Under the pieces are notes generated by a model. It did not search any database and was not told the origin of the DNA. It worked only from the letters and a program-made list of their open reading frames with translations. Positions 12,808-46,277 of a DNA stretch of 48,966 nucleotides are shown here, piece after piece. The stretch comes from a virus. Within the stretch, counting starts at the first letter, position 1. Each line of letters begins with the position of its first letter. The stretch is taken from the IMG/VR virus record IMGVR_UViG_3300013947_000058, positions 1 to 48,966 of that record; one strand, 5' to 3'. A program made the position numbers and the translations under genes.

Positions 12808-13524
12808 TTATTTGTTATTACCCCAGTAACTGGACTTTTTACCAGTACCACGGCGCTGTGCGGCAAGACGAGCACCAAGACCTTTCTCTTCACCCTTACC
12901 TTTTTCTTCCTTAGATGTTTTAACTGAAGAGCCAGTGCCTTTCTGACCAGTCTTACCTTTATCCTTACCACCCTTGTCATCATCTTCGGATTTACCGAAC
13001 CAAACAGGGTACTTAGTTTTGAACTCACCGATAATAGTCTTCATGTCAGAATCTTCTGTCATCTTTGCAAGTGCAAGAGTAACCACATCATCAACATATT
13101 GAGTTTTTACACCCAACATCATAGCTTCTGCTTTAGCTTCTGCAACCTGAGCTCTCTGCTCGGCTTCATTCATTTTGTTCTGATTTTCGGCATCCTTTTC
13201 TGCAGCCTTCTGCTCATCAGTCTTCTGACTTTCAATAAGTGCCTTAACCATTGCAACCATCTTGGAATCCTTAGGGTCAATACCAAGTTCCTTAAGAGCA
13301 GCACTACGACCCTGATTCTTTTCACGGGTCATCATCTTATTTACCTGCTCCTGGGTAAAAGTCTTATCTGATTTACCCTTGTCTCCATCTTTTTTACCGC
13401 CCTTATCAGATTTATCATCTTTACCGGACTTTCCAGAATCATCCTCATTATCGTCCTGGTCCTCAACGTCCTCGTTCTCTTCAATTTCCTCATCAGTGAG
13501 GCTGTTCTTATTTTCTTCTGCCAT
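12808..13524 (-). CDS. Capsid scaffolding protein
   Basis: GGAGG RBS before ATG 13524. Highly charged coiled coil (EQKAAEKDAENQNKMNEAEQRAQVAEAKAEA). Position upstream of the head genes. Confidence 0.6.
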   Translation of the reverse strand: MAEENKNSLTDEEIEENEDVEDQDDNEDDSGKSGKDDKSDKGGKKDGDKGKSDKTFTQEQVNKMMTREKNQGRSAALKELGIDPKDSKMVAMVKALIESQKTDEQKAAEKDAENQNKMNEAEQRAQVAEAKAEAMMLGVKTQYVDDVVTLALAKMTEDSDMKTIIGEFKTKYPVWFGKSEDDDKGGKDKGKTGQKGTGSSVKTSKEEKGKGEEKGLGARLAAQRRGTGKKSSYWGNNK

Positions 13525-13550
13525 TTTAATTTCCTCCTGTTCCATGATTC

Positions 13551-13955
13551 TCATGGTAGATATTTGATAATTTGTTCCTTGTGATTATTTTCAGACGCCA
13601 CAAAGGTAAACGTACCTGGGAACATCTTATTCACTTTATCTACGTATTCTTCGAGACGTTGCTTCTTTTTGAACACCATAGAATTTAGCATTCTTGCCAT
13701 TTCCTGATTATTGCTACCATGGTTTCTTCGTATCCTCTTTTTTGTTTTCTCAAGGTCCTCAACTAATTCATAGTAACGTTTATCTTGAATAGATATACGG
13801 TAAATCTTATTACACTTTGGACACGCAAAATAAACCAAGTTAACAGGCACACCATTCAATTCAATGATGGCCTCATGTATTCCCACAGCATCCAAGTAAA
13901 ACTCATGTTTACATTCATCACACACGATTATTGCTTTTTCTTGTTCTTGATTCAT
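13551..13955 (-). CDS. Zinc-ribbon protein, paralog B of a tandem pair
   Basis: CDECKHEF...(~30 aa)...CPKCNKIY followed by a basic helical tail. Same architecture as 13952..14371. Confidence 0.6.
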   Translation of the reverse strand: MNQEQEKAIIVCDECKHEFYLDAVGIHEAIIELNGVPVNLVYFACPKCNKIYRISIQDKRYYELVEDLEKTKKRIRRNHGSNNQEMARMLNSMVFKKKQRLEEYVDKVNKMFPGTFTFVASENNHKEQIIKYLP

Positions 13956-14371
13956 ACTGAAAACCTCAACATAAAATCAGAATCCGTTTCGTTGTCGTGT
14001 ACCAACTTACCGGTATATTCTTTCATAAGTTTCATCCTGTAATCAGACAGGTGCTGTCGAGCTTTCTTGAATTTTGCTGATTGTTTTTGTGGAATGTCTT
14101 TGCCCTTTTTCTTTGCTACAGCAAGTTTTACAAACTGTCTGGAAACTTCCTTAAGTTTATTAAGCGAAACTGCATCATCAATCTGGACGTAATGGCGTCT
14201 ACCACACTTAGGGCAATCGTAATACGTAAGAAATATTGATTGTCCATTTACATTAAACTCTTTTTTATGAGTAACTGCATTTGCCGCCTCGCTTGCTGAA
14301 ATACTAAACTTAGTTTTACAATCTTCACACTCAACAAGTAATAGCATTGTTTCTTTATCAATTTTACTCAC
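13952..14371 (-). CDS. Zinc-ribbon protein, paralog A of a tandem pair
   Basis: GTG start with AAGGAGG RBS. CEDCKTKF...CPKCGRRHY followed by a basic helical tail. Driven by promoter P3. Confidence 0.6.
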   Translation of the reverse strand: MSKIDKETMLLLVECEDCKTKFSISASEAANAVTHKKEFNVNGQSIFLTYYDCPKCGRRHYVQIDDAVSLNKLKEVSRQFVKLAVAKKKGKDIPQKQSAKFKKARQHLSDYRMKLMKEYTGKLVHDNETDSDFMLRFSV

Positions 14372-14420
14372 TTGATTTCCTCCTTTTTCTGGAAATTGGT
14401 CAACATAACCACTTGTTTAT

Positions 14421-14449
14421 ATTATACCACACAAAATTAGATTTGTAAA
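14421..14449 (-). promoter_or_regulatory. Promoter P3 (TTTACA -35, 17 nt, TGGTATAAT)
   Basis: Minus strand reads cctaTTTACAaatctaattttgtgTGGTATAATataa. Overlaps the 3' end of the ARH gene. Confidence 0.75.
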
Positions 14450-15234
14450 TAGGAAAATACAAAAATTTTGAACTTTTCCAAATAAATTTTAACCTTAGAA
14501 TCCAGTTGGTCAATCCATCTTTGCGGTATAGCATCATAACCAAATCTTGCCCCTGCAATACTACCGGTAATAGCAGCTATCGTGTCTGCATCACCACCAT
14601 CATTTACTGCACCAATTATGGCCTTTTCAAATGATGGTTTACTTGCCCAATATAATGAATTATTGAATGTATCTTTGATATATCCAGAAGGCTCCAGAAT
14701 TGATTTTACTTTATAGGTATATAAATTATTATATAATATATTCTGAATCAATCTGGTGTACTCCAGAATTATCTGGGAACATTCTGAATTATTATGAGTT
14801 AATTTACTTTGTGCCACATTCAAATCAGGTCTATTTATTAAAGCGCATGGCATAGCTCTCATCAAGCTACCATTACCAAGAGCTGTATTATCTCTTTTAA
14901 TAAAATGACCTGTTGACATTGCATAGATTATTCCTTTTTGACATTGACCACCTATATCTTTTGGCCCCATTCGATACCACTCAATAAAATTACCCATGCA
15001 ATGCTTTTCAAATAACTTAATATTATTCATCAAAGCATCCATTACACAGATAGTCATTTGAGTATCATCCGTTACCTTACCAGCTTCAAGATTTAACCAA
15101 CCACCACCAATAATATCGGTTACCTTACCATATTGCTTTTTGATTTGTTTATGATTCATAAACTCAGTAGTTGCACCCATTGCATCACCGATAGCAAATC
15201 CATATATTGCACCTGCAATCTTATTCTTTATCAT
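14437..15234 (-). CDS. ADP-ribosylglycohydrolase (DraG/ARH family)
   Basis: GFAIGDAMGATTEF, VTDDTQMT and NDGGDADTIAAITGSIAGA are hallmark ARH metal-binding motifs. Start uncertain (ATGs between 15234 and 15279). Overlaps the end of the preceding small ORF. Confidence 0.85.
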   Translation of the reverse strand: MIKNKIAGAIYGFAIGDAMGATTEFMNHKQIKKQYGKVTDIIGGGWLNLEAGKVTDDTQMTICVMDALMNNIKLFEKHCMGNFIEWYRMGPKDIGGQCQKGIIYAMSTGHFIKRDNTALGNGSLMRAMPCALINRPDLNVAQSKLTHNNSECSQIILEYTRLIQNILYNNLYTYKVKSILEPSGYIKDTFNNSLYWASKPSFEKAIIGAVNDGGDADTIAAITGSIAGARFGYDAIPQRWIDQLDSKVKIYLEKFKIFVFSYLQI

Positions 15235-15451
15235 ACTCAACATCATACTCAACACACTCACCTCCATCAAGGACTTCATCGGGCTTTACTTCATATTTGA
15301 CACATTTAGATGTGTTGCAAGGCATTCCTTTATCTTTGAAACGATTTCGACAATCCTTGCAAATCAGATTATCATTAGTTACCAAATTAAAGCTTAACTT
15401 ATCTTTTTGAAACTTCTCATCAATAGTACTTAAATTTTTATTTGTTGCCAT
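15221..15451 (-). CDS. Small Cys-rich (zinc-binding type) protein
   Basis: AAAGGAGG RBS before ATG 15451. CKDCRNRF...C...C...C pattern. First gene behind promoter P4. Confidence 0.6.
   Translation of the reverse strand: MATNKNLSTIDEKFQKDKLSFNLVTNDNLICKDCRNRFKDKGMPCNTSKCVKYEVKPDEVLDGGECVEYDVEYDKE
15230..15253. repeat. Perfect 12-bp tandem duplication (atcatactcaac x2)
   Basis: In frame in both overlapping ORFs. Gives VEYDVEYD in the small ORF and LSMMLSM in the ARH 5' extension. Confidence 0.9.
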
Positions 15452-15480
15452 AATTAGCACCTCCTTTTACTTCTATAGAT

Positions 15481-15509
15481 ATTATACCACATTACACTCA
15501 ATTTGTACA
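15481..15509 (-). promoter_or_regulatory. Promoter P4 (TGTACA -35, 17 nt, TGGTATAAT)
   Basis: Minus strand reads attttcaaaaagtaTGTACAaattgagtgtaatgTGGTATAATatctatagaag. A TCTATAGA palindrome sits at the predicted start site. Confidence 0.8.
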
Positions 15510-15523
15510 TACTTTTTGAAAAT

Positions 15524-17509
15524 TTATTTCGAACCTTTTAAATTTTTTAAAGTCATATAAATTCGTCTTACATCGCCACGACTATTAAATTCAACATTGT
15601 CAACCATAAATTTGCCACCACAATTCACAAGAAGCTCTCGCTCACTATAAAATTGAGAAATAGGCGCAACATACATTGCTTGACTTCCTTTAGGAATCTT
15701 AATAATATATTCAATACCAATATCAAAGCCACCACTTGCATCTGGCGACGTAGATAAGAATCCAGAGTCTTGAACAATACCACCAACAAGTCTATCCTTA
15801 TTCTCTTTGGAAATATCAAGACCAAGCTCTTCAAGCATATTGTATCTGGAGCCACGACGAACTATTACATCCTCAGGAAGACTTGCTTTCTTTAATGCAG
15901 CTTGACACTGCTTAATAAGCTGCTTAATTTCATCAGATGCATCAAGAGTACCTTTTGACCTAAGATAATCGTTCATTGCATGATATGTCGAGCTTGTATA
16001 TTTAGTAATTGCATCTCTCTGCGCATGGTCTAATGTTGTTAACCAATCGTGACACCATTCTTCCATTACTTTCATTTTTTGTTTTCTCATCATTTTGCGC
16101 CAAGCAGCAGAGTCAAACTGAACACCAACAGTTTTTGCAGTACTTGCAGTTTTCTTGGTAGTCATTGTAGTTTTTATAACAAAGTTCTTATCAGTCAAAT
16201 ACTGATTATAAAACTTCATTAATTGCTGATATGGATGCGGGTCAGACCAGCTTGTTCCCATACTTTTAAGAATTTCACTTGCTTGTTCATAACTAATCTT
16301 ATGAGACCAATCATCAAAATCATACGGCATTTTATCTTTTGTAAATCCATACGGTTTAAGATATTTTTCTTGAATATCACTAAATGCTTGAATCTTTTTC
16401 TTCCCACCAAGATTAGAACCATCACCATTATAAATATTCTTTTCATACCACTGATTCCACGTAAGACCAGATTCATTTTTAAGAGCTTTAGCTTCAGCTT
16501 TTTGAGCTTGTGTCAAGCTATTAAACCAAGAAGAAGGCGACTTTGACGACATACCATATTTGTTAATAAAATCTTGAACATTTCCTACTTTAGAAACTTG
16601 ATAACCAAAATTACCAGCAAACTCATCAATCTCAGGATATGTTCCATCAGGACTATTAAACCAGTCTGCAAGCTTATCAGCCATTTTATCGTCAATAACC
16701 GGTTCCATTGTACACATTCCATTTGGGTGGTCCATCGGCAAATCATCTTTACTGTAATGAACACCATCACGACTTGCACATAATTCACATGTACGGCTAC
16801 CATTGCTTCTCCAAACATATTCTGTTATAAATGGATTCTTTTGAGTAGTTTCAATGAAACTTTGCTGATAGCCATGCTGAACCAATGTCCTTGCTAATCT
16901 CTGAGCATTATAATCAACTTGCTTTTTATAGATTTTCTTGCCATCAGCCATTCGTAAATTCCAAGGCAATTTAGCATTTGGTCTTACATAAGATTCAAGA
17001 TCTTTAGCAATCTCATAAATGGGTTTATTTTCAGCCAAACCTCTTGCCATAACTTGATAAATATCTTTAAGTGTTTGCTCGTTATCACTCCAAATTCTTG
17101 AGCTTAAGCTCCAACCACTTTCATATATTTGACCAGTTATTAGCTTTTGAACAGTTTCATGTGGCACATAACTAAATGCGGCATTCAAACCACCAGAAGA
17201 AAAACCAAAACTCTCTAGCCACTTAGCATTATCTGACACAACTGCATCAGCTACAGTATAAATATTCGACTTTATCTTTTTATGAATTTCATTAGAAACC
17301 TCTTGGCTTGTTTGTCTTAATTGCTTCTGCAATTCTTTGTAATATCGCTCAGACACTGGAGCACTTGCAGTGGATTTGTGAGAGTAGTATTTAGCTCTCT
17401 CACCAATCTCATCTGCCCAATCTTCATAGAGCTTTGCAATCTCTTTTTGCTGAGATGCCATAATGGCAAATTTAGCATCTTCAGCATTTTTAAAAATTAA
17501 ACCAGCCAT
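15524..17509 (-). CDS. Minor capsid protein (SPP1 gp7 / Mu F family) fused to a C-terminal ADP-ribosyltransferase toxin domain
   Basis: MuF signature WRSNGSRTCELCASRDGVHYSKDDLPMDHPNGMCTMEPV. C-terminal R-S-E ART triad: YTSSTYHAMNDYLR, VIVRRGS, GFLSTSP, SERELLV. Confidence 0.85.
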   Translation of the reverse strand: MAGLIFKNAEDAKFAIMASQQKEIAKLYEDWADEIGERAKYYSHKSTASAPVSERYYKELQKQLRQTSQEVSNEIHKKIKSNIYTVADAVVSDNAKWLESFGFSSGGLNAAFSYVPHETVQKLITGQIYESGWSLSSRIWSDNEQTLKDIYQVMARGLAENKPIYEIAKDLESYVRPNAKLPWNLRMADGKKIYKKQVDYNAQRLARTLVQHGYQQSFIETTQKNPFITEYVWRSNGSRTCELCASRDGVHYSKDDLPMDHPNGMCTMEPVIDDKMADKLADWFNSPDGTYPEIDEFAGNFGYQVSKVGNVQDFINKYGMSSKSPSSWFNSLTQAQKAEAKALKNESGLTWNQWYEKNIYNGDGSNLGGKKKIQAFSDIQEKYLKPYGFTKDKMPYDFDDWSHKISYEQASEILKSMGTSWSDPHPYQQLMKFYNQYLTDKNFVIKTTMTTKKTASTAKTVGVQFDSAAWRKMMRKQKMKVMEEWCHDWLTTLDHAQRDAITKYTSSTYHAMNDYLRSKGTLDASDEIKQLIKQCQAALKKASLPEDVIVRRGSRYNMLEELGLDISKENKDRLVGGIVQDSGFLSTSPDASGGFDIGIEYIIKIPKGSQAMYVAPISQFYSERELLVNCGGKFMVDNVEFNSRGDVRRIYMTLKNLKGSK

Positions 17510-17525
17510 TATGGCAACCCCTTTC

Positions 17526-19106
17526 TTAAATCATTTCATCTTCTTTAAAATCATCAGCCGGATTATCAGACTTATTCTGATTTTCTATACCACCAGAAGG
17601 ATATGGCTCTGTATCATCACTTACAGCAAATGAACTTTCTTCAAGCATTTGTCTTTCAAGAGCAATCTGCTCAAGTTCCTCTTGAGCCTCATCATCAGTG
17701 AGCCCTCTCCACTTTTTCATATAAGCCTTACGACTCATAGTCTTAGATTCAACCTCAGACAAGTCCATGTTCTTCTCTTCAATTTCATCTTCAGGAAGTG
17801 GAGTATTTTGCTCAATCTTAATCTCATAATCAACAGCTGACACTGTACTGTTTGTATATCTTGCAATACAACCAGGATAAACCATTGCACCTTGAAGAAT
17901 AATGTTAACCATATTTCTCAGTTGAGGTCCCCAGGTCTTCATCTTTTCTTTACACCTTACAAGCAAAGGCCAGTAAATTGCTTTTAGTGCTTTGCCGCTT
18001 GTAATTGTAGCTTGAACCTCTTCAATATCAGGCATATCAACCTGCTCATAGGCAGACTTCTTTACTCTCTTAAGTGTAACATCAAGAGAAGCACTATAAT
18101 TCATACTTGGCTCAAGTAAACCAACTTGAGGATGCGCATTATCCAAGTTTTGGTCTGAACCTAAATCCCAAAAAGCACCTGCAGCTGTAGAAAGATTCTT
18201 GGTAGAATTTGATTCCATATCCACAGTATACTTAGTAGGATTCATTGATTTTCTCTGAGCGTCAATATCTGCATTAGACAACTTACTATACCAAGACTCA
18301 TCATCTTGCAAAATCTCAATCTCAGATTCGCCTTTATCCTCACCAGATAAGCCATCGTTAATGAAAATGCTTACCGGAATCATTGGCATCAAAGTTTCCT
18401 GATATTCAGTAACAACTTCCAATTCTTTTCCGGCTCCATCATAAAGAACTTCCTCAAGATAAACCACATCATCTACTAATTCGAATTTCTTCTTGAATAT
18501 TCGTTTTTCACTTAATGTAATTGAATCCTTTACGATAATAAAGCATACAAATTTTGTTATAATATTTGAGTTGCCTATCTTGGTATCATAAATAAATTGA
18601 GTTGATGGAAGGAACGTGACTGTTACACCATCATCTTCATTGAAATTTACTAAACCAGCAACTCGCTTTCCAATAAAACAATCCTTGGCTGCTTTAATAA
18701 GAGCTTCCTCAAATTTATTAGCATCAAGGATTGTCTTAACTAAGTCATTCATTACAGTCAGCGCATTCCTTGCCTCTTCTGTAATTTTACCAACATCGCC
18801 TTTAGGCTCAACCGTAATGTCAGGTGGCTCAGCAAAGAGAAACCTTGCTTCCTTATTAATAAGGGATGCGGCCATCTTATAGTTAAGCTTAGCAGGCACA
18901 TAGTCACCATTTGTGCCCTCAACAGTAAAGCTTGCACCTTTCTTATACACTTTATAGTATTTGCAGATTTGTGTCAACTCATCCAAAGTGTCCTTTGTCG
19001 CACCTGAAACTTCTGCATTGATTAATGCATAAGGAATACGGTTGAAAGCTGTCAAGACTTCAGTACTGTTCTCGGCTTCAATGACCTTAGCTTCTTCACT
19101 AACCAT
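17526..19106 (-). CDS. Portal protein (SPP1 gp6-like)
   Basis: 526 aa with an acidic C-terminus. Directly upstream of the MuF-family gene, the canonical portal-MuF pairing. Confidence 0.75.
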   Translation of the reverse strand: MVSEEAKVIEAENSTEVLTAFNRIPYALINAEVSGATKDTLDELTQICKYYKVYKKGASFTVEGTNGDYVPAKLNYKMAASLINKEARFLFAEPPDITVEPKGDVGKITEEARNALTVMNDLVKTILDANKFEEALIKAAKDCFIGKRVAGLVNFNEDDGVTVTFLPSTQFIYDTKIGNSNIITKFVCFIIVKDSITLSEKRIFKKKFELVDDVVYLEEVLYDGAGKELEVVTEYQETLMPMIPVSIFINDGLSGEDKGESEIEILQDDESWYSKLSNADIDAQRKSMNPTKYTVDMESNSTKNLSTAAGAFWDLGSDQNLDNAHPQVGLLEPSMNYSASLDVTLKRVKKSAYEQVDMPDIEEVQATITSGKALKAIYWPLLVRCKEKMKTWGPQLRNMVNIILQGAMVYPGCIARYTNSTVSAVDYEIKIEQNTPLPEDEIEEKNMDLSEVESKTMSRKAYMKKWRGLTDDEAQEELEQIALERQMLEESSFAVSDDTEPYPSGGIENQNKSDNPADDFKEDEMI

Positions 19107-19120
19107 CTTCCATTACCTCC

Positions 19121-20269
19121 TTATTTTATTCCACCATTATAGGAAACGAAACCAACTTTACAGTTTGAGCTTCCGTTAATCTTATAAAGTACAAGATACA
19201 TTCCGTCAACAATTCCTAAGCATACACAAGATTCATTCTTATCAAGGTTTCCGATTAAGTTTTTCTTAGCTGTATCAGAATACACCTTTTCAATAGTCGA
19301 ACCATTCTTATAGTGTTTTCCGCCGGACGGAATTGATTTTACTCCGCCTGCATATTTAACAAATCCAACCTTGTGCTTGCTTGAACCATTAATTTTGTAA
19401 ACAACAACATATCCTTTGGACTTTTTGCCATAGCATTTTGCTCCTTCTCTTGGAGATATACTTCCTATATTACCTGTGAGATTACATGCTTCAAATACCT
19501 TTTCAATAGTTGAACCATTTTTCCAAGCAACCGACTTTACAAAATGTGAACTATGAGAAGTGTTTGAAGATATACCTGACTGATTCTTTGGTCTTAAGAA
19601 ATTGATATTGCTCCAATCAGTATGTTTGATATTCTTAACAATTCTGTTACCGTTATAATTCTGCTCAATAGTATAAAAATAATCTTTAGTTGCCGATATA
19701 ATTATACCGATATGACCATAAGTACCACTCGTTCTTACAAATACATCACCCTTTTTTGGAATAAACTCAGGAGTGTTTGGAATAGCCGTAAACAAACTTT
19801 TGATATAACTTGAATTTCTATTAAGCCAATAATCTTTAGCATTACCTGCGGCTTTAGGAGGCACCCCTAAAACATCTCTTATATAATTCTTTACAAAGCT
19901 TACGCATTCGCCTACATAAGTACCGTCAAAACCATAAGAATGATTGAGCTTATACTTTTTACAGAACTCATCAAACGTTATTGTACTTGAGCCTCCCTTT
20001 TCTTCATCTGAATCAGAATGAGGCTGATTATAAGACATAGCACGTTGACTATCTGAAATTCCTTTTGTAGTTGGATCAGTAATAATCCCTATTGTAGCAG
20101 GAACCATCAGAATAAGAGTGATAACATCGAGAATCTCTTTCTCTGATACTGAAGTTTCTACTCCACACAATCTCAAAATCGAAAAGATTGCTATAACAAT
20201 AGCAGAAATTACTGATAACCACCAAGAACCATTGTTGATTCTTACTTTCCAATTTATATTATTATTCAT
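19121..20269 (-). CDS. Holin (phi LC3 family) fused to a CHAP peptidoglycan hydrolase with two SH3b-like repeats
   Basis: N-terminus INWKVRINNGSWWLSVISAIVIAIF...LILMVPATIGIITDPTTKGISDSQRAMSY is holin-like. CHAP Cys/His: GECVSFVKNY, YGHIGII. Two repeats KNGSTIEKV...YKINGSS.KVGFV.Y.GG. Confidence 0.75.
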   Translation of the reverse strand: MNNNINWKVRINNGSWWLSVISAIVIAIFSILRLCGVETSVSEKEILDVITLILMVPATIGIITDPTTKGISDSQRAMSYNQPHSDSDEEKGGSSTITFDEFCKKYKLNHSYGFDGTYVGECVSFVKNYIRDVLGVPPKAAGNAKDYWLNRNSSYIKSLFTAIPNTPEFIPKKGDVFVRTSGTYGHIGIIISATKDYFYTIEQNYNGNRIVKNIKHTDWSNINFLRPKNQSGISSNTSHSSHFVKSVAWKNGSTIEKVFEACNLTGNIGSISPREGAKCYGKKSKGYVVVYKINGSSKHKVGFVKYAGGVKSIPSGGKHYKNGSTIEKVYSDTAKKNLIGNLDKNESCVCLGIVDGMYLVLYKINGSSNCKVGFVSYNGGIK

Positions 20270-20291: not shown

Positions 20292-22292
20292 TTAACTGGA
20301 CGTAATCCATAATTTATAAAAAACATCTACAGCTGTACCTTTAGTAAAATTACCTGCTGAAGTTCTTAAAGTTACTGATGACTGACTTTTCATTAATATA
20401 GGGAATGTTCCTTTAGTCCTATCGATATTTAAAGTATAATCATTACTTGAGATAGCATCAAAGAAGTCAACTATTGCATATTGCTGATTACATCTTACAA
20501 CGTGAAGAAAGATATTTTTAGTATCAGTTTCCAGATTACCTAAAGTAACAGTATTACCGAAAAGATCCAATGTAAGTACACCCTGCATACCCGTGTTAAT
20601 CCCATCTTTTCTAAATAACCATATATACATTTCTTGAAAATCTCGTGCATTAGAAATCGTATAATGTTCCGTATCTTCTTTAATATTTTCTTGAGTACTT
20701 AACCAATTTAATTTTGAAAATCTATCATTATAATTGCCTATTTCTTGCATCATAGGAAGCAAAATATCAGACATTAAAGACATTGTAGGAATCTCTTGAT
20801 CGGCATCTTCAACAGTTGCTTTTGAAATATCAAGACCTTCTGTATTGACTGATAATTCTTGATTTTCAAGTTTTAGTCCTTTGCCTATGCCTGAAGTATT
20901 TAAAGTGGTTATACCAGTTTCTTCATTAAGTTCTTTAGTAGTTACTAATCTTCCTGCTTCTTGTTGGCTTACAGCATCATTAAAAACCATATCTACTATA
21001 TTCAACATATCTTGTATATCTTGAATTTTTGAATATTTGATTTGACTACCATCTTTTTTACTTCTTACACAAAAAAGTATATCTCCATCGGGAGTCGTAT
21101 GTATTAAAGTTGAATAATTTTTACTACTGTCAGTTCTATCATTAATTTTCGTTGTTAATAAGCAAAGATTATTTTTAGAAACAACTACGTGCTGAGTTTG
21201 ATTGTTAATAGTCCAATCAAAAGTCCACTCTATCGCTGCATAATATAATCCATCTTTAGTTGGTACATATCCGCTCTCGTTAACAACCGTAATAGGACTT
21301 TTAGGCAATTCAAAATTACCATTACCCAAAATAGACTCATTATTTATAGTCTTGATATTTTGCCCACTTACGAGTGTATCTTGCTTATCGTCTAACTCTT
21401 TTTGCGTTACAAAATTTGCATGATTCCACGAATTCACATCTGAAGAATCTGGGATGTATCCTCCATTGGCGTATTCTCCTTCTCCACCAAATTTGCCAAT
21501 TAAACACATTTGACCATCAGCGGATTTAAAAATAAAAGTACCTTTTGATAAACTAAATAAACTAGCAACTGGAGATTTGCCATTTACAAGAACATTAACA
21601 CTTTCAACATTAACTACATAAGCACCCTCTTTTAGAGTAGTAACCTCCAAAGTATCACTTAAAATCGGAGTGAAGGGAATACTCTGTAATTCATTAAAAT
21701 CAGTAGTTCCGGGTTCGCCTTTTAAACCTTGTGGTCCTTGTGGACCAATCGGGCCTTGTATTCCTTGTGGACCTTGCTCTCCATCTCTTCCGTTATAAAC
21801 TCCATCTTCTGCATTCTTTTGAATTTGGTCTGCTATTGTTTTCGCTTGTGCTGAAGTTTCTTGAGCCTCTTTTACTTTATCAGCACTTGCTTCCGTTTCC
21901 GCTGCATATCTCTTAATCTCACTAATCAACTGATTATAAAGATTCGGAGTAGGTGGAATAGGTTCTTGCTCTGTCGAACTTAAACCTGCTGGATATACTT
22001 CTATCTCATAACCATTAACTGTACCAAAAACTGCTGTATCTGCTTTTGCACCAAAACAAGAAATCATTAACCAACCTGCACTTATATCAGCCGGGACATT
22101 AAGTGTTCTTGCTTCGCCTATGTACTTATTAATCGTCTTACCTTTTTGAATGAACTGAACTGTCATAAGCAATCCATCCCAATCACTTGAGCATTGCAAT
22201 TCAATAGGAACGAATTCTGTACTACCTGCAACCAACCTAATAGGTGGACTGTCAAAAGAACTTATTTTCTGACCTTCAACCAATAATTTCAT
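20292..22292 (-). CDS. Collagen-repeat-containing fibre / structural protein
   Basis: [31 protein letters not shown] run at about aa 165-195. 666 aa and beta-rich. Confidence 0.5.
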
Positions 22293-22330: not shown

Positions 22331-23695
22331 TTAACCAGCTTTACTATTGAAGACCTTATCTTTCACATCTGCAACTGTTACAGTATCTAATGCATACCAA
22401 ATAGCAGAAAATGTATGAGGGTCAATATTAAACTGGTCATAAATAACATTGCCTTTTGCGTCTTTCTTATATGTTAAATCCTTAAGCTCTCTTATTACAT
22501 TCTTACACTTTGGACTTACTACGATTTTTCTAAATCTCTTTACCTTTCTTGTGTTAGATAATCTTGAGCCTTTAAACTTATTACGACATGCTCTGATTTT
22601 AAAACCATTTTGTTTGTAATATGATATTGCTTTAGGGTCTTCGTTATCTGCAACAAGAACCTTTTTATAGCCTGCATTGTTTAGGTCATTTAATCTTCTT
22701 CTTAGCTTTTGCATCTCTGGCTGATTTACAAATACATCATCTGTTACATGATTTATATATATTTCATCCCAGATATATAAGATACCTCTCTTTGAGTCTA
22801 CACTCATACTAATAACAGCGTTGAATGATTCTTCAAAACCAAAGTCGAAACCAAAGTATTGATTTTCTTTGCCAAGCTTTTCAATAGCTCGTTTAAATTT
22901 GTCTTTGTCTTTTGCAACCAAGAACTGTGGAAGAACTCTTGTACCTGTAGCACCAAACCTTCCCCACCTTGCAACCATATAAAGTGGATAATCATAGTTT
23001 TTAAGGTCATCCAATCGTTTCATATATTGCCAAGGTAACCATGGATTGTCATCAGGTGTTGAATGATGGTAATATGTACCATTATGCACAATGCATTTCT
23101 TTTCATAGAACTTGGCTTCATCTACCAATATATTCTCTTGACCTTCATCATCCAGTCTTACAAAGAAGTGTCTGTATACCCAGTTATCTCTACCAATAGG
23201 ATTACAGCTTAAGATAAAATGCATACTTGCATTCGGTGTACGAATACGACCAAGCAATTCCTTATAACCTTCATACTTAATCTCAGAACACTCTTCCAAC
23301 CAAACAATAGAAACACCATTAATAGACTTTACCTTTTCAGGCTTATCCATACCCTTAAAGATTATTTGACTACCATTTTTGAACCTAAATCTTAGTGGGC
23401 TTCTTAATGCCAGAACTTTATTTTGTTTTTGCTTAAACTCTTTAGGGTCTGTTGTTGCTAAACCCATATCATCAAGTATCTCAAAAATCAAATCATAACA
23501 AGATTCCTGAATAGTATCATATACTTCTCTGATAACCAATGCTTTACGTTTTTCTTCAAGTAGCTTTAAAATTATCTTGAATGCAATATGATATGACTTA
23601 CCTGAACCATACCCACCAATAAGCAAATATCGTTCATAGTCCCAATCGAATAAGAAGTCTTCAAATGCTGGACTAACGGCTTTTGTTATTTTCAT
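22331..23695 (-). CDS. terL: Terminase large subunit
   Basis: Walker A LIGGYGSGKSY. PBSX/Terminase_3-like layout. Follows the small subunit. Confidence 0.9.
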   Translation of the reverse strand: MKITKAVSPAFEDFLFDWDYERYLLIGGYGSGKSYHIAFKIILKLLEEKRKALVIREVYDTIQESCYDLIFEILDDMGLATTDPKEFKQKQNKVLALRSPLRFRFKNGSQIIFKGMDKPEKVKSINGVSIVWLEECSEIKYEGYKELLGRIRTPNASMHFILSCNPIGRDNWVYRHFFVRLDDEGQENILVDEAKFYEKKCIVHNGTYYHHSTPDDNPWLPWQYMKRLDDLKNYDYPLYMVARWGRFGATGTRVLPQFLVAKDKDKFKRAIEKLGKENQYFGFDFGFEESFNAVISMSVDSKRGILYIWDEIYINHVTDDVFVNQPEMQKLRRRLNDLNNAGYKKVLVADNEDPKAISYYKQNGFKIRACRNKFKGSRLSNTRKVKRFRKIVVSPKCKNVIRELKDLTYKKDAKGNVIYDQFNIDPHTFSAIWYALDTVTVADVKDKVFNSKAG

Positions 23696-23698
23696 AGT

Positions 23699-24418
23699 TT
23701 AGTCCTCCCACTCTTCATCTTCGTCTTCCCAATCATCAGGCCAATAGTCTAAATCCTCATCAGATGCTTCATTTTCAACTTTAGTTGTTACATTTGAAAT
23801 GTTTTGCTTAGTTGCTTGAGCCTTCTTCTTAGCTGCTTCTGCTTTCTCTTCTTCTGTAGCATTACGAATTTCAATCGACTGATTTACTTCATCTTGCCAC
23901 TCTTTATCATCTGATTTATCTTGTTGAGCTTTATTTGATTGATTTGCACTCGCTCTTGTTACTGTAACTTGAATCTTTGTGTCTTCATCATTAAGCTCAA
24001 TAAGCTGGTCTCTATTCTTCTTCCACTTATCTGGGAGTCTGTTATATAACCAACACTGAATAGCAGAAACATTTGGCGATTGTTCTTTATCTGTTACTTC
24101 TTTAACTGTTTCAACTACTTTACCATAACGCATTGTAGTTGTTACTTTTATTTCTTTTGTTTTATACCCTAAAGCTGATTTAAGTAAAGCATTTTCAACT
24201 TTATAGTCAATTATCTCTCGACCTTTTTTAAGAGCATTATCAATATCAGAATATTGAGCTCTCCACATTCTTAGTGTAGATAGTGAAATACCAATACGAT
24301 TTGCAATATCTTGAAACGTATATCCATCTCGTGCCCAACATTCAAGTAGCATCAGATTGTCTTCTTCCAACCATTCTGTAGCAATGCATTCATTTTTAGT
24401 TTTGCTTACTGACGCCAT
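23699..24418 (-). CDS. terS: Terminase small subunit
   Basis: HTH GYTFQDIANRIGISLSTLRMWRAQ, acidic tail, immediately upstream of TerL. Confidence 0.75.
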   Translation of the reverse strand: MASVSKTKNECIATEWLEEDNLMLLECWARDGYTFQDIANRIGISLSTLRMWRAQYSDIDNALKKGREIIDYKVENALLKSALGYKTKEIKVTTTMRYGKVVETVKEVTDKEQSPNVSAIQCWLYNRLPDKWKKNRDQLIELNDEDTKIQVTVTRASANQSNKAQQDKSDDKEWQDEVNQSIEIRNATEEEKAEAAKKKAQATKQNISNVTTKVENEASDEDLDYWPDDWEDEDEEWED

Positions 24419-37044: not shown

Positions 37045-37239
37045 TTATTCCTCTCCTACAATTTCAAGGTATTCGTCTTTCCACTTTCTGACGTTATCTA
37101 AGTCGTATGAACCGAAACCTATATCACTGTACTCCTTACCTACTTCATGATACCTTATCTCAAAATAAGGCTTTTCTTTTGTACCACTTACAATAATATA
37201 AGCCTCTGTTACTTTAGTTTTATTCTGTTTATCCATCAT
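37045..37239 (-). CDS. Hypothetical protein
   Basis: 64 aa. Start overlaps the upstream stop. Confidence 0.45.
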   Translation of the reverse strand: MMDKQNKTKVTEAYIIVSGTKEKPYFEIRYHEVGKEYSDIGFGSYDLDNVRKWKDEYLEIVGEE

Positions 37240-38036
37240 CTCGCCTCCTTTGGTCTGTTTAAAATATGATGAACGATATACATATAAACAATACCTTTTT
37301 CTTCTATATCACTGAGATACCAATCAGCAAATTCTTTAGGATTCTCTTTAAAGTTTTTCGTTATTGTATCTTCAATTCTTATCATTGGAAACTGTGACAT
37401 ATCATGCTTGCCAAATAATCTAAAAAGCTCATTATCTGAATGTGTATATGCATAATTCTCATTGATTATTGCTTCACACAATCTCTTTAAAAACCTTTTT
37501 ACTTTGTTATCCGGTTTAAGCTTTTCTTTATTCAGCTTTTCAAGTAGTATCTCTGGAGTTGGCCACTCATACCAAGTTATTCTTCCGGCTTCTCTCATAC
37601 TCTGATTATGTTCTATGCCGTATGTTTGAGCAATTCTGTTCATTAGCTCTCCTGCTTTTCTGTAACCAACATATACAATAAGCTTTGCAAGTACATAAGC
37701 TTCAAACTCATCTTGATGCATTATATGAATTCCACTTCCACGATTCGCTGGGATTTTAAACTTTCCACCAAGATGCTTAACTCTCATATTCACATCTAAG
37801 CAATCTGTTTTTAAATCAAAATACTCAAACCAAACATTATAAAAATCATCTGCTGAACAACTCATTATAAGTCTGTATTTATTAAAGTTAAACCTATCTC
37901 GCTGTTGCTCAATCTTAAGTGCTTTATCTCTAAATGGAATCACATATTTTCCTTCTTTTAGCTTTATCCATCTTGGAACTTGTCCCGAATTATAAATTTG
38001 GTCAAGATTGAAATAAGGCACATCAATTACAAACAT
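37236..38036 (-). CDS. OGG1/AlkA-like DNA glycosylase fold protein (catalytic motif not recognised)
   Basis: N-terminus FNLDQIYNSGQVPRW, YFDLKTDC, GIHIMHQDEFEAYVLAKLI and WYEWPTPEILLEKL parallel Ogg-family landmarks. No clear HhH-GPD Lys/Asp seen. Confidence 0.35.
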   Translation of the reverse strand: MFVIDVPYFNLDQIYNSGQVPRWIKLKEGKYVIPFRDKALKIEQQRDRFNFNKYRLIMSCSADDFYNVWFEYFDLKTDCLDVNMRVKHLGGKFKIPANRGSGIHIMHQDEFEAYVLAKLIVYVGYRKAGELMNRIAQTYGIEHNQSMREAGRITWYEWPTPEILLEKLNKEKLKPDNKVKRFLKRLCEAIINENYAYTHSDNELFRLFGKHDMSQFPMIRIEDTITKNFKENPKEFADWYLSDIEEKGIVYMYIVHHILNRPKEAR

Positions 38037-38488
38037 ACATCACCACTCCTATTTACAACTCGTATAATTCCTGCATTTTTAAGCATTCTTGCACATATAT
38101 TGCAAGGAACAGGATTCTTATCTTCATGAAAGTCAACAACTTTCTCTTCCCACATTGCAGATTTTTCTTCATTTAGACCATATTCTTCACAAGCCAAATA
38201 TACCGTCGCACCAATCAATCTCTCACGACCTGTAGCAATCAAAGCATTTTGCTCTGCATGAACACTATCACAATTTTCGTAGCATGAATATCTTTCAGCA
38301 TTTGCTCTTTTGCATGTGCCTCTATCACAACAATTTTCTTCGCCTCTCGGACTGCCATTGTAACCGGTAGCAATAATAATATCATCTTTAACAATAACAC
38401 AACCATAATGACGTTTGAGGCATGTACTTCTTTTCGAAACTGCAAGAGCAATACCAAGATAATATTCATCTTTTGTTATTCTTCTCAT
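38027..38488 (-). CDS. dCMP deaminase
   Basis: VHAEQNALI and PCNICARML zinc-binding motifs. AGAGGA RBS before ATG 38488. Confidence 0.85.
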   Translation of the reverse strand: MRRITKDEYYLGIALAVSKRSTCLKRHYGCVIVKDDIIIATGYNGSPRGEENCCDRGTCKRANAERYSCYENCDSVHAEQNALIATGRERLIGATVYLACEEYGLNEEKSAMWEEKVVDFHEDKNPVPCNICARMLKNAGIIRVVNRSGDVCL

Positions 38489-38499
38489 AGTTTTCCTCT

Positions 38500-38709
38500 T
38501 CACTTTCTTTTGCTCTTTGTTATCATTGATTCTTCCCATTTTTCAATATTGCAGTCTTGATAGCCTAATCCTGTTAGTGCAAGTGCAAGCTGCTCAGGCG
38601 CAATTATAATATCAATATCTTTTTTAAAATTATTATCTGTAACAGATATAATAATTTGATTTGTATTATTAATATTACGAGAAATAGTTATTTTTGCATT
38701 AGTTTTCAT
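38500..38709 (-). CDS. Hypothetical protein
   Basis: ATG 38709 (MKTNAKITISR...). 69 aa. Confidence 0.45.
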   Translation of the reverse strand: MKTNAKITISRNINNTNQIIISVTDNNFKKDIDIIIAPEQLALALTGLGYQDCNIEKWEESMITKSKRK

Positions 38710-40128: not shown

Positions 40129-42828
40129 TTGATTTGATTTTGCATACAGTGTGCTATTGTATTTGGTCACACGATTAATATAAGTTCGTTTATTGAACTC
40201 CAATGCACCTTGCTCTTTCAAAATCTGAATAACTCTCGACGTAACAGTTCTTGATTTGCACCTATCATAAAAATCATCAAAGCTTATAAATACACCATGA
40301 GCTTTTCGTTCCTCTTCAATTGCTGTGGCTGCTTTTTCACCAATTCCTTTAATTGAACTTAATCCTTCTTGAATTACCATTTCACCCTCGACTTTTCGAA
40401 GTGTATAATTAGCTGAATAATTAACATGCGGCAAAAACAATATTGCATTATCACGAACAGCATTTTCTTTGAATTTAGCCATCTTAGCTTCATCACCACT
40501 GTACTTCATCTTTACATACCAAAACTCTGTAGGATAATAGATTTTGTAGTACATTTCCTCGACCGAGATTAAACTATATCCTGTAGCATGCCCTTTATTA
40601 AATGCATAGTTAAAGAATTTATCAAAAATTTCAAATGCCTGTTCTTTAGTCATACCATGTTTCTTTGCACCAGCTTCAAACTTCTTTACAAAGTTGTCAT
40701 AATTTTCTTCAAAGTTTCTGATTGCCTTTTCAGTACCACCACGTTGCATCTTCAAAATCTTATCAGCTTCAGGCCATTCCAATCCACCAATGTTAACTGC
40801 AATAGCTTGTACTTGTTCTTGATATACTACACAACCATAAGTTTTCTCAAGATATTTTGAGTATGGCAAACTCGTATCAATATGAGCTTGGTCAACCTTA
40901 TTGGCTGCATATACTTCCGGCATCTTTAAGCTCAGTGGACCAGGCCTGTTCATAGCCGATGCAGCAATCACATCTTCAAAACAATCACATTGCATTACTC
41001 TCAGCATTTCTTGAACTGATTTCTTTTCAAACTGGAATACACCATCACAATTGCCTTCACCAAAAGCTTTCATGACTTGCTCATCATTTACCCAATCTTC
41101 ATCAAATTCATCATGACCTGTAAGTTGTCTAAGTTCACCAATACTTGACATTGTGGTAAGACCAAGAATATCAAACTTAATTACTTTGATTTTTTCCATA
41201 TCGTTCAAATCATAATTTGTGAAATGCTTACCTGTTTTTGAATCAATACGAACAGCTGTATAGTCCAGAATATTTCCACCAGTAATTGCAACACCAGCAG
41301 CATGAGTTCCGATATATCTGATTTTATTATACAGCTTGCAGAAATGCTTAATGATATTATCATATTGAGCATTCCACATTTTTGCTTCAGCTGATTTAGA
41401 TACTTTGTCAAGGTCAAGTAAACCTTCATTTATATTGCTGTTTACAAAGTTTTTAATCTGCTTTATTTCGTCTTTGTTTCCCTCAAGACCACAAACTTTT
41501 GCAAGGTCATTTATAAGGTTATCAACACGATATAAACCATAAGAACAGATTTGAGCTGCATTATTTGGATATCTATCCAGCAAGTGCTGAATTACTTCTG
41601 CTCGACGTGACGTTTCAAAATCAAGGTCAATATCAGGCATTTTCTTCTTATCAATTCTTAAGAATCGACTAAAATCAAGGTCAAATAAAATCGGGTCAAC
41701 ATCAGTAATATGCAATGCATAGTTAACCAAACAATTACAACCAGAACCACGACCAGGACCAACTTGAATCCCATGCTCTTTTGCCCATGTTGCATACTCA
41801 GCAACCATCAAAAAGTAATCTTCAAAGCCATGATACTTAATGACTTTAAGCTCTTCCTTAATTCTTGCTGCATACTTCTTATTCCACTTGCCTCGTTTTT
41901 TAAGCCCATCCTTTATTTTCTCTTTCAATAAATCAAGCGAATCTCTCTCAGGGTCAAACTGAGGAAGCTTAAGTTCAAGCTCATCAAGAATATCACCATC
42001 AACTTTGTCTTCAATTTCCTGCAGGTTTCTAACCATTTCTTTTGCCAGAGCTTTTACTTTAACATTACCAAAATCACCTTTATGCATTTTATAAAATCGC
42101 TGCATAATTTCCTTTTCAGTTGGCATATAACGTTCTTTATACGTTGCTTCAATATCATCGAAATTATGCTTAGCAACTTCATGCATTTTCATATAAGTAT
42201 CAAAATCTTCTTTTGCGCCTCTATGAGAATCAGAGGTAAGTATAAGCTTAATACCTAACTTCTTAGCTAATTTAATTGACTCAACATTTACCTTTTCTTG
42301 AAGCCCTGGCTCAGTAATTGAATACGGCTGAATTTCAATATAAAAATCATCGCCAAAAATATCAACCATCTTTCTAAGATACTTTTCAGCTTGGTCAATC
42401 TTATCTGATTTAATACACTGAGCTAAGTAACCTGCAACACAAGCACTCGTACAAATCAATCCTTCATGATATTCCTCAAGTAGTTCAAATGTCCAAATTG
42501 GATTGTAGTACTTGATTTTCTCACCTTCATACTGAAGTGTATTTAGATTCGTATATCCTTGCTTTGTCTTGGCAAACAAACATAAGTGGTAGCCTCTTGT
42601 TTGAGGCTTATACTTTGGTAAGAAATATCCTTCGCATCCCATGATAGGCTTAATACCTTCCTCTTTACATGCATAGAAATGTCTTACCAATCCATTTGTG
42701 TTACCATGATTAGACGTACCAAGAGACGTATATCCAAGCTGTTTTGCTAAAGCAGCAAGCTCTTCCGGTTTACCAAAACCATCAAACGTACTACACTCAT
42801 CGTGTCTGTGTAAATCTACCATTTGCAA
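40126..42828 (-). CDS. dnaE: DNA polymerase III alpha subunit (DnaE-type, N-terminal PHP domain)
   Basis: PHP start VDLHRHDECSTFDG. Palm/fingers GPGRGSGCNCLVNYALHITDVDP. PDIDLDFETSRR. 900 aa. Confidence 0.95.
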   Translation of the reverse strand: MQMVDLHRHDECSTFDGFGKPEELAALAKQLGYTSLGTSNHGNTNGLVRHFYACKEEGIKPIMGCEGYFLPKYKPQTRGYHLCLFAKTKQGYTNLNTLQYEGEKIKYYNPIWTFELLEEYHEGLICTSACVAGYLAQCIKSDKIDQAEKYLRKMVDIFGDDFYIEIQPYSITEPGLQEKVNVESIKLAKKLGIKLILTSDSHRGAKEDFDTYMKMHEVAKHNFDDIEATYKERYMPTEKEIMQRFYKMHKGDFGNVKVKALAKEMVRNLQEIEDKVDGDILDELELKLPQFDPERDSLDLLKEKIKDGLKKRGKWNKKYAARIKEELKVIKYHGFEDYFLMVAEYATWAKEHGIQVGPGRGSGCNCLVNYALHITDVDPILFDLDFSRFLRIDKKKMPDIDLDFETSRRAEVIQHLLDRYPNNAAQICSYGLYRVDNLINDLAKVCGLEGNKDEIKQIKNFVNSNINEGLLDLDKVSKSAEAKMWNAQYDNIIKHFCKLYNKIRYIGTHAAGVAITGGNILDYTAVRIDSKTGKHFTNYDLNDMEKIKVIKFDILGLTTMSSIGELRQLTGHDEFDEDWVNDEQVMKAFGEGNCDGVFQFEKKSVQEMLRVMQCDCFEDVIAASAMNRPGPLSLKMPEVYAANKVDQAHIDTSLPYSKYLEKTYGCVVYQEQVQAIAVNIGGLEWPEADKILKMQRGGTEKAIRNFEENYDNFVKKFEAGAKKHGMTKEQAFEIFDKFFNYAFNKGHATGYSLISVEEMYYKIYYPTEFWYVKMKYSGDEAKMAKFKENAVRDNAILFLPHVNYSANYTLRKVEGEMVIQEGLSSIKGIGEKAATAIEEERKAHGVFISFDDFYDRCKSRTVTSRVIQILKEQGALEFNKRTYINRVTKYNSTLYAKSNQ

Positions 42829-43567
42829 TTCTCCTTTTCTTACATATCATCAATATTTGACGATTGGCTTGAGTAGGAGACAAGCAAGCAATTATTGCTC
42901 TTATATAACTTTCAGGGAATGCGCCTCTGAGCTTTGAAGCAATCATACTCAAATTAGCATTAGTCTCTAAAAGCTTATTATATTCTCGTTCTTCAAGACT
43001 CCAACCAATCTCTTTATTGATTTTGAACTCCTTATTTATTATACCATAAATCTCAGAATTTGTAAACTCTTTTTTATGGTCAGTTGGCCATACTCTATCT
43101 TCATACATTCCCTCGTATGGAGGAGTAGGAGTCGTAAATAGTAGCAGTCCTTCTGGCACCAACCAACTTGCAATTCGCTCAAACATAGTAGCTGCAAAAT
43201 CTTTGTCAATGTGCTCAATCACTTCCATGAATACCACACAATCATAAACAATCTTCGCATGCATTCTTATGTTGAACTCTTTTGATGTGATATCGAAAAC
43301 GGTAATCGTCTTATCAGATTCGTATCGTTTATCACCATCAACTCTCATGAACTTAATATCATCACGCTTAAAATTTTTCTTAACCATATTCTCTAAATCA
43401 CTTGAGCCAGCACCAAGCTCTAATACTCTAGAGTCTGCAGGCAGCTGAGCAATTTGCCCAGCCACCATAAGAATTCTATTAAAGTTTGAGAAGCTCCAGT
43501 GTAAGTTGTAATCACATTCAGAGAATTTGTCAAATCCCATTTCTCTATTTGCATTCTTACAATTCAC
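42797..43567 (-). CDS. Class I SAM-dependent methyltransferase (substrate unknown)
   Basis: Motif I VLELGAGSSDL, post-I and motif-II-like VFMEVIEHI. Start uncertain: GTG 43567 with GGAGG 9 nt upstream, or ATG 43540 or 43597. Confidence 0.65.
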   Translation of the reverse strand: MNCKNANREMGFDKFSECDYNLHWSFSNFNRILMVAGQIAQLPADSRVLELGAGSSDLENMVKKNFKRDDIKFMRVDGDKRYESDKTITVFDITSKEFNIRMHAKIVYDCVVFMEVIEHIDKDFAATMFERIASWLVPEGLLLFTTPTPPYEGMYEDRVWPTDHKKEFTNSEIYGIINKEFKINKEIGWSLEEREYNKLLETNANLSMIASKLRGAFPESYIRAIIACLSPTQANRQILMICKKRRIANGRFTQTR

Positions 43568-43994: not shown

Positions 43995-43997
43995 ATA

Positions 43998-45407: not shown

Positions 45408-45417
45408 TATAGATTCT

Positions 45418-46211: not shown

Positions 46212-46234
46212 AACGATTTCTCCTTTTCTAAAAT

Positions 46235-46264: not shown

Positions 46265-46277
46265 GTGAATACTTTCA

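Follow-up and report, generated by a model that had tools for sequence, protein, structure and literature searches.

The window (the whole stretch of DNA that was analysed, 48,966 bp) comprises the IMG/VR virus record IMGVR_UViG_3300013947_000058 and is a complete phage-sized contig with all genes on the minus strand. Its head-gene region carries an open reading frame (ORF) of 661 aa (17509..15524, minus) that codes for a head protein of the SPP1-gp7/MuF type with a C3/VIP2-like ADP-ribosyltransferase (ART) as its C-terminal domain. Directly behind it are a promoter (P4), a 76-aa ORF with four conserved cysteines and a gene for an ADP-ribosylhydrolase (ARH) (Table 1). A sequence-only reading of this DNA had described the large ORF as a MuF core joined to a C-terminal ART, and the ORF and every motif that it quoted were found. 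The identical MuF-ART protein was also recorded on a contig of 48,896 bp. More than 1,500 metagenomic homologues of the fusion protein were detected, the closest being encoded on gut-metagenome contigs of approximately 50 kb.

Table 1. Coordinates of the MuF-ART locus and of other features in the window.
Feature	Position	Strand	Evidence or remark
MuF/SPP1-gp7-like head-morphogenesis domain, aa 1-305	16595..17509	minus	PHROG 1657, TIGR01641, synteny
Middle/linker region, aa 306-470	16100..16594	minus	no Pfam or PHROG domain
C-terminal ART, aa 471-661, C3/VIP2-like R-S-ExE type	15527..16099	minus	Pfam, PDB, model
P4	15481..15523	minus	starts right after the MuF-ART stop; A/T-rich upstream block TTTTCAAAAAG
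76-aa small protein, candidate non-enzymatic immunity or partner protein	15221..15451 (ATG)	minus	conserved family, co-occurrence
DraG/Tri1-like ARH, about 271 aa	14437..15255 (ORF open from 15279, 280 aa)	minus	Pfam, PDB
P3	14421..14449	minus	-35 TTTACA within the last ARH codons; extended -10 TGTGGTATAAT
Zinc-ribbon gene pair	13551-14371	minus	paralogous, CpXC-like, PHROG 1315
SPP1-type portal gene	19106..17526	minus	directly upstream of the 661-aa fusion gene
Holin–CHAP fusion, 382 aa	20269..19121	minus	
666-aa ORF	20292-22292	minus	collagen-like repeat, weak tail-fibre PHROG matches; between large terminase and holin–CHAP gene
Large terminase subunit	23695..22331	minus	
Small terminase subunit	24418..23699	minus	
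Nucleotide-metabolism set	37236-38539 and 42797-46751	minus	dCMP deaminase, OGG_N-like glycosylase, methyltransferase, ThyX-like protein
Nucleotide-metabolism set, further members	37236-38539 and 42797-46751	minus	HD 5'-deoxynucleotidase, nucleoside 2-deoxyribosyltransferase, MazG-type dUTPase

The MuF-ART fusion and its two downstream genes

The N-terminal domain of the fusion protein matched the 'head morphogenesis' family PHROG 1657 (5.5e-53) and has an 83-90% identity to stand-alone MuF proteins of 308 aa in close relatives. With TIGR01641 at threshold and the synteny of the gene, this makes the MuF assignment secure at the level of sequence comparison. The Pfam profile Phage_Mu_F was at or above its threshold in homologues that match the MuF domain of the window at 3e-79 (L058, 31.8 bits). 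SPP1 gp7 is a portal-binding protein that is present in one or two copies per head and exits with the DNA. The linker contains a repeat unit (KYG.S.KSP..WF.SL...QKAEAKALK..SGL.WN.WYE.NI), which the alignment revealed to be duplicated in a variant of 724 aa (P0104).

The C-terminal domain matched Pfam ADPrib_exo_Tox (PF03496) over residues 486-658 (E=1e-29; 103.7 bits, cut-off 23.4). The R-S-E triad claimed for this domain was supported by the profile match and by invariant motifs. The catalytic residues are R551/R552, S586-T587-S588 and E623-R-E625, and the R, the T-S and both E were invariant in 27 homologues that are otherwise 32-68% identical, with the first S of S-T-S retained in 26/27. 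These motifs align with those of Lmo0066 and VIP2, and sequence searches of the PDB matched 8za7_B (9e-20) and VIP2 (4e-16). Modeling of the C-terminal region (residues 470-661), a check that the sequence-only reading had called for, returned a confident ART fold (AlphaFold pLDDT 93.2, pTM 0.88) with 8za7_B as the best fold match (TM 0.78/0.83), followed by Plx2A, C3, Certhrax, VIP2 and CDTa. The 50 top PDB fold matches listed were all ARTs of the C3/VIP2/iota/CDTa type, with E down to 9e-17. PDB entry 8za7 is entitled 'ART-ARH type toxin effector-immunity protein pair of Listeria monocytogenes', chain B being the ART and chain A the ARH. The ART of the window is predicted to be arginine-specific because of its E-x-E motif and its pairing with a hydrolase of the type that acts on ADP-ribosylated arginine (Arg-ADPr; DraG-type).

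The hydrolase and the 76-aa ORF that it was said to overlap were both present. Translation of the ARH probably begins at GTG 15255 or TTG 15252, immediately downstream of a GGAGG, so that the protein would have about 271 aa and its gene would share ~35 nt with the small ORF. This overlap suggests translational coupling. The protein matched Pfam ADP_ribosyl_GH (PF03747) with E=4.4e-52 (178 bits, cut-off 26.2); of the three profiles named in the sequence-only reading, this one and ADPrib_exo_Tox were far above cut-off and Phage_Mu_F remained sub-threshold. Matches in the PDB were DraG (2woc, 2e-40), Tri1 (6dre, 2e-28) and Lmo0067 (8za7_A, 4e-27), DraG and Tri1 both matching better than 8za7_A and aligning over the full length. 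The metal-site motifs GDAMGATTEF, TDDT, DIG and GGDADT align with DraG (2woc, 3g9d), and the binuclear site is conserved. The NCBIfam equivalog cut-offs were not reached for either DraG (TIGR02662, 188.6 vs 337 bits) or Tri1 (NF041672, 130.7 vs 490), and by sequence comparison the ARH is a relative of DraG and Tri1 and an orthologue of neither. Tri1 has an N-terminal extension of ~60 aa that occludes the toxin. Residues 15-187 of the ARH align to positions 64-242 of the Tri1 model, and the ARH is without such an extension. Among GenBank phages, 39 protein-level ARH matches were listed, mainly in jumbo, Streptomyces and Rhodococcus phages, and none of these 39 records was among the 30 records listed as MuF/ART matches.

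The ATG of the small ORF lies 73 nt past the MuF-ART stop behind a strong Shine-Dalgarno sequence (AAGGAGGTG), and the protein would be 79 aa if GTG 15460 is the start. Four cysteines (C31, C34, C50, C66) were invariant in the 16 close homologues aligned, within the motifs CKDC, NTSKC and KPDEVLDGG.C (KP..VL.GG.C), and the CxxC and the last two cysteines are kept in divergent members. The family comprises 63 close clusters, and a profile search retrieved 148 representative clusters at E≤1e-3, nearly all of 55-95 aa. A chance ORF was ruled out by the 63 clusters with invariant cysteines together with the strong ribosome-binding site. No match to the small protein was found in Pfam, PHROG, NCBIfam or PADLOC, and the PADLOC defence profiles matched neither the ART nor the ARH. 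An in-frame fusion of the small domain to an ARH (P0284, E=2.8e-7) indicates that the small domain is functionally linked to the hydrolase. At two loci that carry other ART subtypes (L039:5921-6130, L037:1383-1598), a different small acidic ORF (69-71 aa, MKKYKNYEAIYYIL...) is found in place of the four-cysteine protein; the C-terminal domain of L037 apparently has Q-x-E instead of E-x-E, and L037 has no ARH.

Promoters and gene content of related loci

P4 consists of a -35 TGTACA (15509..15504), a 17-nt spacer and an extended -10 TGTGGTATAAT (15491..15481). With one mismatch or fewer, TGTGGTATAAT occurs nine times in the window compared to 1.4 expected, and none of 100 shuffles reached nine. 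Seven or eight of the copies share an upstream block (TTTTCAAAAA..TATGTACAAAT). Eight copies of the full cassette (1254, 14421, 15481, 25017, 29266, 34437, 40070 and 43038, minus strand) head gene blocks genome-wide. The claim that a conserved promoter cassette directly follows the MuF-ART stop was upheld, with its elements located and its enrichment supported statistically. P3 heads the core head genes (zinc-ribbon pair, scaffold, capsid), for which transcription starts anew there. A leader motif, (A)AG(T)GGTTAAGG, is found just past the -10 of several copies; a version of it is present in P3, whereas P4 lacks it. Two distant relatives carry an ORF of 207 aa just upstream of the zinc-ribbon and head genes (L056:1668-2291, L063:8231-8854), the C-terminus of which appears by eye similar to a sigma-70 region-4 helix-turn-helix, which hints at a phage late sigma factor in that branch.

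The block containing MuF-ART is itself headed by the same cassette (promoter 25017, the next cassette promoter upstream of P4), and no terminator was found between the ART stop and P4. MuF-ART is therefore the last gene of the terminase–portal unit. ART-less relatives have a single promoter between the MuF and zinc-ribbon genes. The upstream half of this promoter (TTTTCAAAAAGATATGTACAAG) aligns with P4 and its leader (ACAAGTGGTT..GACCAA..AAAGGAGGAAAT..ATGAGT) aligns with the leader of P3, so that the pair of small ORF and ARH sits inside the former head-gene promoter region, with the core promoter duplicated. On this alignment P4 is homologous, and corresponds in position, to the promoter that drives the head genes in ART-less relatives, and it is not a separate regulatory class. 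The sequence-only reading had the eraser expressed independently of late transcription, and this was not supported, as P4 is the same cassette as the head-gene promoters and no terminator precedes it; P4 as a marker of early or independent expression was also rejected, since the alignment with ART-less relatives speaks against it. Most plausibly P4 raises the dosage of antidote over toxin. A promoter-like element was present directly after the MuF-ART stop in 12/12 ARH-bearing relatives inspected (11 distinct sequences), down to ~33% ART identity. Separate promotion of the antidotes is therefore a selected feature.

A total of 81 loci were collected, and 60 distinct loci from this phage family showed the region downstream after identical MuF proteins had been removed. 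An ART was present at 28 of these, 26 with a member of the small family, 18 with a full ARH and one with an ARH fragment. The other 32 were without an ART, and no small-family gene, full ARH or ARH fragment was found at any of them. The confinement of ARH and small ORF to loci with an ART indicates that ART and hydrolase belong to one functional toxin/antidote module. The earlier proposal of a writer/eraser module is supported by this confinement and by the best structure match of the ART, which is the ART half of the ART–ARH pair 8za7. Relatives with an 83-89% identical MuF have the zinc-ribbon genes directly after the 308-aa MuF gene and no cassette, and relatives at 28-60% identity keep ART and small gene, most of them with an ARH too. 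ART-bearing and ART-less phages are interleaved, and the C-terminal extensions of other relatives are ATLF/zincin-like, DUF3626-like or unassigned. Such co-occurrence, interleaving and swapping of C-termini is what marks a polymorphic toxin that comes with immunity genes. The two zinc-ribbon genes were also considered as module members and were ruled out, as they are present between MuF and scaffold in nearly all relatives with or without an ART; by this conservation they are core head-module genes.

The cassette is not always complete. Six loci have an ART and small gene with no ARH (L014-L018, L025), and in the two of these that were examined (L016, L025) the start of the small gene follows the ART stop by 13 nt and no promoter intervenes. 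Two loci from independent samples (L005:5876-6485, L006:2813-3417) encode a fusion protein of 724 aa with an intact ART and a duplicated linker repeat, followed by an ARH truncated to ~100 aa and by a second, divergent small-family member of 84 aa.

Evolutionary rates were calculated with a pairwise aligner for the window and four close relatives (L001, L008, L009, L010). The non-synonymous divergence (dN) of the ART was 0.14-0.35, compared to 0.04-0.08 in its flanks and to 0.02-0.08 over portal, MuF, linker, small ORF, ARH, scaffold and capsid. The ratio of dN to synonymous divergence (dN/dS) was 0.13-0.29 in the ART compared to 0.05-0.12 in most neighbouring genes, with ZnR1 reaching 0.19. 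Most differences within the ART fall in its N-terminal helices and the loop preceding E-x-E, the part that recognises the substrate in C3-like enzymes. Synonymous divergence across 14437-19106 drops from ~0.85-1.0 in portal, MuF and linker to 0.2-0.6 in small ORF, ARH, zinc-ribbon genes and scaffold, and this break at the ART domain suggests a recombination junction there.

Genome setting of the window

The order of the head block is small terminase, large terminase, ..., portal, MuF-ART, P4, 76-aa ORF, ARH, P3, zinc-ribbon pair, scaffold, small head protein and a lambda-E-type capsid. The MuF-ART gene is thus located in the packaging/head module and adjoins the portal gene, as in MuF polymorphic toxins. 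The phage encodes its own replication genes (a family-A-like DNA polymerase, primase, UvsX-like recombinase, SSB, Cas4-like exonuclease and RuvC) as well as numerous nucleotide-metabolism genes, and this dense nucleotide-metabolism set suggests that the phage may make modified-base DNA. The ORFs scanned, a set that leaves aside about 25 small ones, included neither an integrase nor a repressor, and a tRNA scan found none. A megablast of 13500-19200 against GenBank phages gave no match, relatives being detectable at the protein level only. Among isolated phages, Agathobaculum phage AB434P2 (polymerase 59% identical) and the Clostridium_AP phages CS266P1-4 are nearest; their MuF proteins are without an ART. 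Relatives in GTDB are stand-alone contigs of 48-54 kb binned with metagenome-assembled genomes of Oscillospiraceae, Faecousia and other Clostridia, and the phage family comes from gut metagenomes. The phage is probably virulent because no integrase or repressor was detected and its relatives are stand-alone contigs. Overall it is apparently a virulent siphophage of gut Clostridia with Oscillospiraceae-like hosts. MuF polymorphic toxins have been defined in part by being encoded by temperate phages; here the genes lie on one strand, DNA polymerase, primase and recombinase are phage-encoded, and the contigs stand alone at ~50 kb.

Lysis genes are placed between the large terminase and portal genes throughout the phage family. 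In the window, the 382-aa ORF at this position combines a Phage_holin_1 domain with a CHAP peptidase, followed by two C-terminal repeats. At this position, relatives (L001:2500-4368, L005:1-1734) encode the holin, of r1t type, separately from the endolysin, which is of the GH25/CHAP/CW_7 or amidase type. The 666-aa collagen-repeat ORF is absent from the equivalent position in L001.

Comparison with known systems and proposed role

The closest described counterpart is Bxa, a MuF-ART protein of 869 aa from a Bacteroides stercoris prophage that kills bacteria (Alexei et al. 2024, PMC11699363). Experiments showed that the adjacent hydrolase BAH neutralises Bxa enzymatically and that the small protein Bsi does so physically (PMC11699363). 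In both systems the head-morphogenesis block encodes a MuF N-terminus joined to an ART at the C-terminus, next to an ARH gene and a small ORF, whose products provide enzymatic and non-enzymatic immunity to Bxa and would do so here, and in both the N-terminal domain is joined to other toxin domains in relatives. They differ in that Bxa is encoded by a Bacteroides prophage whereas the window derives from a Clostridia-associated, apparently virulent phage, and the fusion protein of the window is shorter at 661 aa. BAH was described as ARH1-like whereas the ARH of the window is DraG/Tri1-like, and the Bxa study reported no separate promoter, which is present in the window as P4. No described family was found to resemble the small four-cysteine protein.

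Toxin-eraser pairing is also found in Lmo0066/Lmo0067 (8za7), the best sequence and fold match of the ART (30% identity); Lmo0066, however, is a stand-alone or secreted effector of 180 aa and not a phage head fusion. A literature search found no paper describing this pair. In Tre1/Tri1 of the Serratia type VI secretion system (T6SS) and in the Tox-ART-RSE toxins listed with the enzymatic immunity Imm-ADP-RGHD (Zhang et al. 2012, PMC3482391), an R-S-E ART is likewise neutralised by an ADP-ribosylarginine hydrolase, although delivery is by T6SS or type VII secretion (T7SS) and not by a capsid. The MuF polymorphic toxins described by Jamet et al. 2017 (PMC5576092) have variable C-terminal toxins, 14% of them ARTs, and include EFV of an Enterococcus faecalis V583 prophage. 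They share with the window the MuF N-terminus, the variable C-termini, the small ORF (<150 aa) downstream and the adjacent portal gene, but were described as exclusive to temperate phages, and no lysogeny genes were detected here (PMC5576092). MuF-ART fusions of lytic actinophages are already deposited in GenBank. In Apk2/Tis1/Aph1, a MuF toxin is accompanied by a small binder that is always present and by a reversing hydrolase that is variably so (Ahmad et al. 2023, PMC10083569). The two antidotes show analogous counts here (26/28 for the small gene, 18/28 for the ARH), the difference being that Apk2 and Aph1 act by (p)ppApp synthesis and hydrolysis and not by ADP-ribosylation. By analogy, Bsi and Tis1, both non-enzymatic immunity proteins, are the candidate counterparts of the small protein. 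In Iyer et al. 2022, ARTs of the Alt/VIP2 type fused to MuF were described as effectors packaged in the head, and ADP-ribosylglycohydrolases as rare in phages (PMC9503650). The T4 protein Alt is an ART that is packaged in the head, injected with the DNA and modifies arginines of host proteins, but it has no MuF fusion and instead uses a capsid-targeting sequence and processing by the prohead protease. T4 is not known to encode a cognate ARH beside Alt.

Taken together, the locus is probably a MuF-type polymorphic toxin/effector module of the Bxa kind, in which a capsid-delivered ART is accompanied by the ARH and the small protein as antidotes. By analogy with gp7, the MuF domain would bring the ART at its C-terminal end into the capsid and, through it, into the next host, where the ART is predicted to ADP-ribosylate arginine. 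During toxin synthesis in the infected cell, the two products encoded directly downstream would keep the ART harmless, the ARH by stripping ADP-ribose enzymatically and the small four-cysteine protein, as the candidate counterpart of Bsi and Tis1, possibly by binding either the toxin or the hydrolase. The antidote genes would be transcribed both by read-through and from P4, their own copy of the standard host-type promoter, and the antidotes should therefore outnumber the toxin.

Several points weigh against this toxin/antidote interpretation. We infer the enzymatic activities, the arginine specificity, the neutralisation, the packaging or injection and the target from sequence and analogy. 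For MuF-fused toxins in general, the authors of the Apk2 and Bxa studies left unsettled the virion carriage or injection and its benefit to the phage (PMC10083569, PMC11699363). TIGR01641 (SPP1 gp7; 7e-10) scored 39.2 bits against a cut-off of 39.65, i.e., 0.45 bits under, and Pfam Phage_Mu_F scored 18.9 bits, under its cut-off of 29.6. P4 belongs to the head-gene promoter class and gives no sign of distinct timing. The AlphaFold model of the small protein (16-sequence alignment) had a pLDDT of 47.5 and was unusable. The small domain is also fused to DUF1643 (DUF1643::small, P0227) and DUF6508 (DUF6508::small, P0248), with borderline matches at the C-terminus of GNAT acetyltransferases, and it may be a generic module. 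Identity to L001 is 58% for the ART and reaches 88% for the small protein, which is not the co-divergence expected of a tight active-site binder. Where the ART is 58% identical, small protein and ARH are 88-92% identical, and this lack of co-divergence fits an enzymatic antidote and argues against a highly allele-specific binder. Finally, the ART is split or fragmentary in four of the six ARH-less ART loci, and the ARH is absent or truncated where the ART looks intact (L016, L025, L005/L006), indicating that neither gene is essential to the phage.

The same genes could be explained by a released exotoxin, in which MuF-ART is freed at lysis or on leaky particles and hits neighbouring bacteria or animal epithelium, the antidotes protecting the producer until lysis. 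Bxa modifies epithelial cytoskeletal proteins and promotes gut colonisation (PMC11699363, PMC10083569), the phage family is of gut-metagenome origin and the nearest ART folds are those of the exotoxins VIP2, C3 and CDTa. We nevertheless regard this as unlikely, as the fusion protein has no signal peptide or translocation domain and its fusion to a portal-associated head protein favours capsid loading; moreover, with no lysogeny genes detected and the phages found as stand-alone ~50-kb contigs, there would be no lysogen to gain from a colonisation factor. A DraT/DraG-type intracellular switch, with ART and ARH regulating a phage or host protein in morphogenesis (e.g., at the portal vertex) and no delivery, would suit the similarity of the ARH to DraG, its closest match and an eraser of regulatory Arg-ADP-ribosylation, and the position of the genes in the head-assembly block under the same promoter class. 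It is decidedly improbable, however, given that the cassette is accessory, close relatives assembling heads without it, and that the ART is polymorphic, fast-evolving and swapped for unrelated domains, the pattern of a conflict effector and not of a housekeeping gene. We give very little credence to a counter-defence role, in which ARH and small protein would undo ADP-ribosylation by host defences and their nearness to the phage ART would be incidental. ARH and small gene were found in 0/32 ART-less relatives, which presumably face similar hosts, no PADLOC-type context was found, and DraG-like enzymes act on protein Arg-ADPr, whereas the adducts made by DarT or CmdT are on DNA or RNA.

Within the preferred reading of a capsid-delivered toxin with antidotes, a more specific role is conceivable, although we consider it quite unlikely: a 'poison at entry' device of a virulent phage, in which the injected ART poisons each cell entered and the antidotes are encoded only on the incoming DNA. 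On that DNA the antidote genes lie directly behind a strong host-type promoter with a short leader. A cell whose restriction, CRISPR or abortive systems destroy or silence the phage genome would therefore keep the modification and end up arrested or dead, and the device would serve as retaliation against resistant hosts or as a takeover commitment device. The fast evolution of ART substrate recognition (dN/dS three to four times that of MuF and portal) would then reflect an arms race with the host target.

The writer/eraser idea is already published (PMC3482391, PMC11699363) and the gain here is incremental, with the apparently virulent Clostridia phage background, the small four-cysteine Zn-type family and the fast-evolving ART being mildly new. 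The probable virulence of the phage departs from the 2017 statement that confined MuF toxins to temperate phages (PMC5576092). The small four-cysteine family is a previously undescribed one that tracks ART toxins and is occasionally fused to the hydrolase. Overall, for studying whether MuF-fused toxins travel in virions and what they give the phage, the phage family provides a convenient natural series of near-identical ART-less phages, phages with ART, small gene and ARH, phages with ART and small gene only, and phages with decaying ARTs. All of them appear to be lytic, which makes a 'lysogen weapon' an unlikely role.

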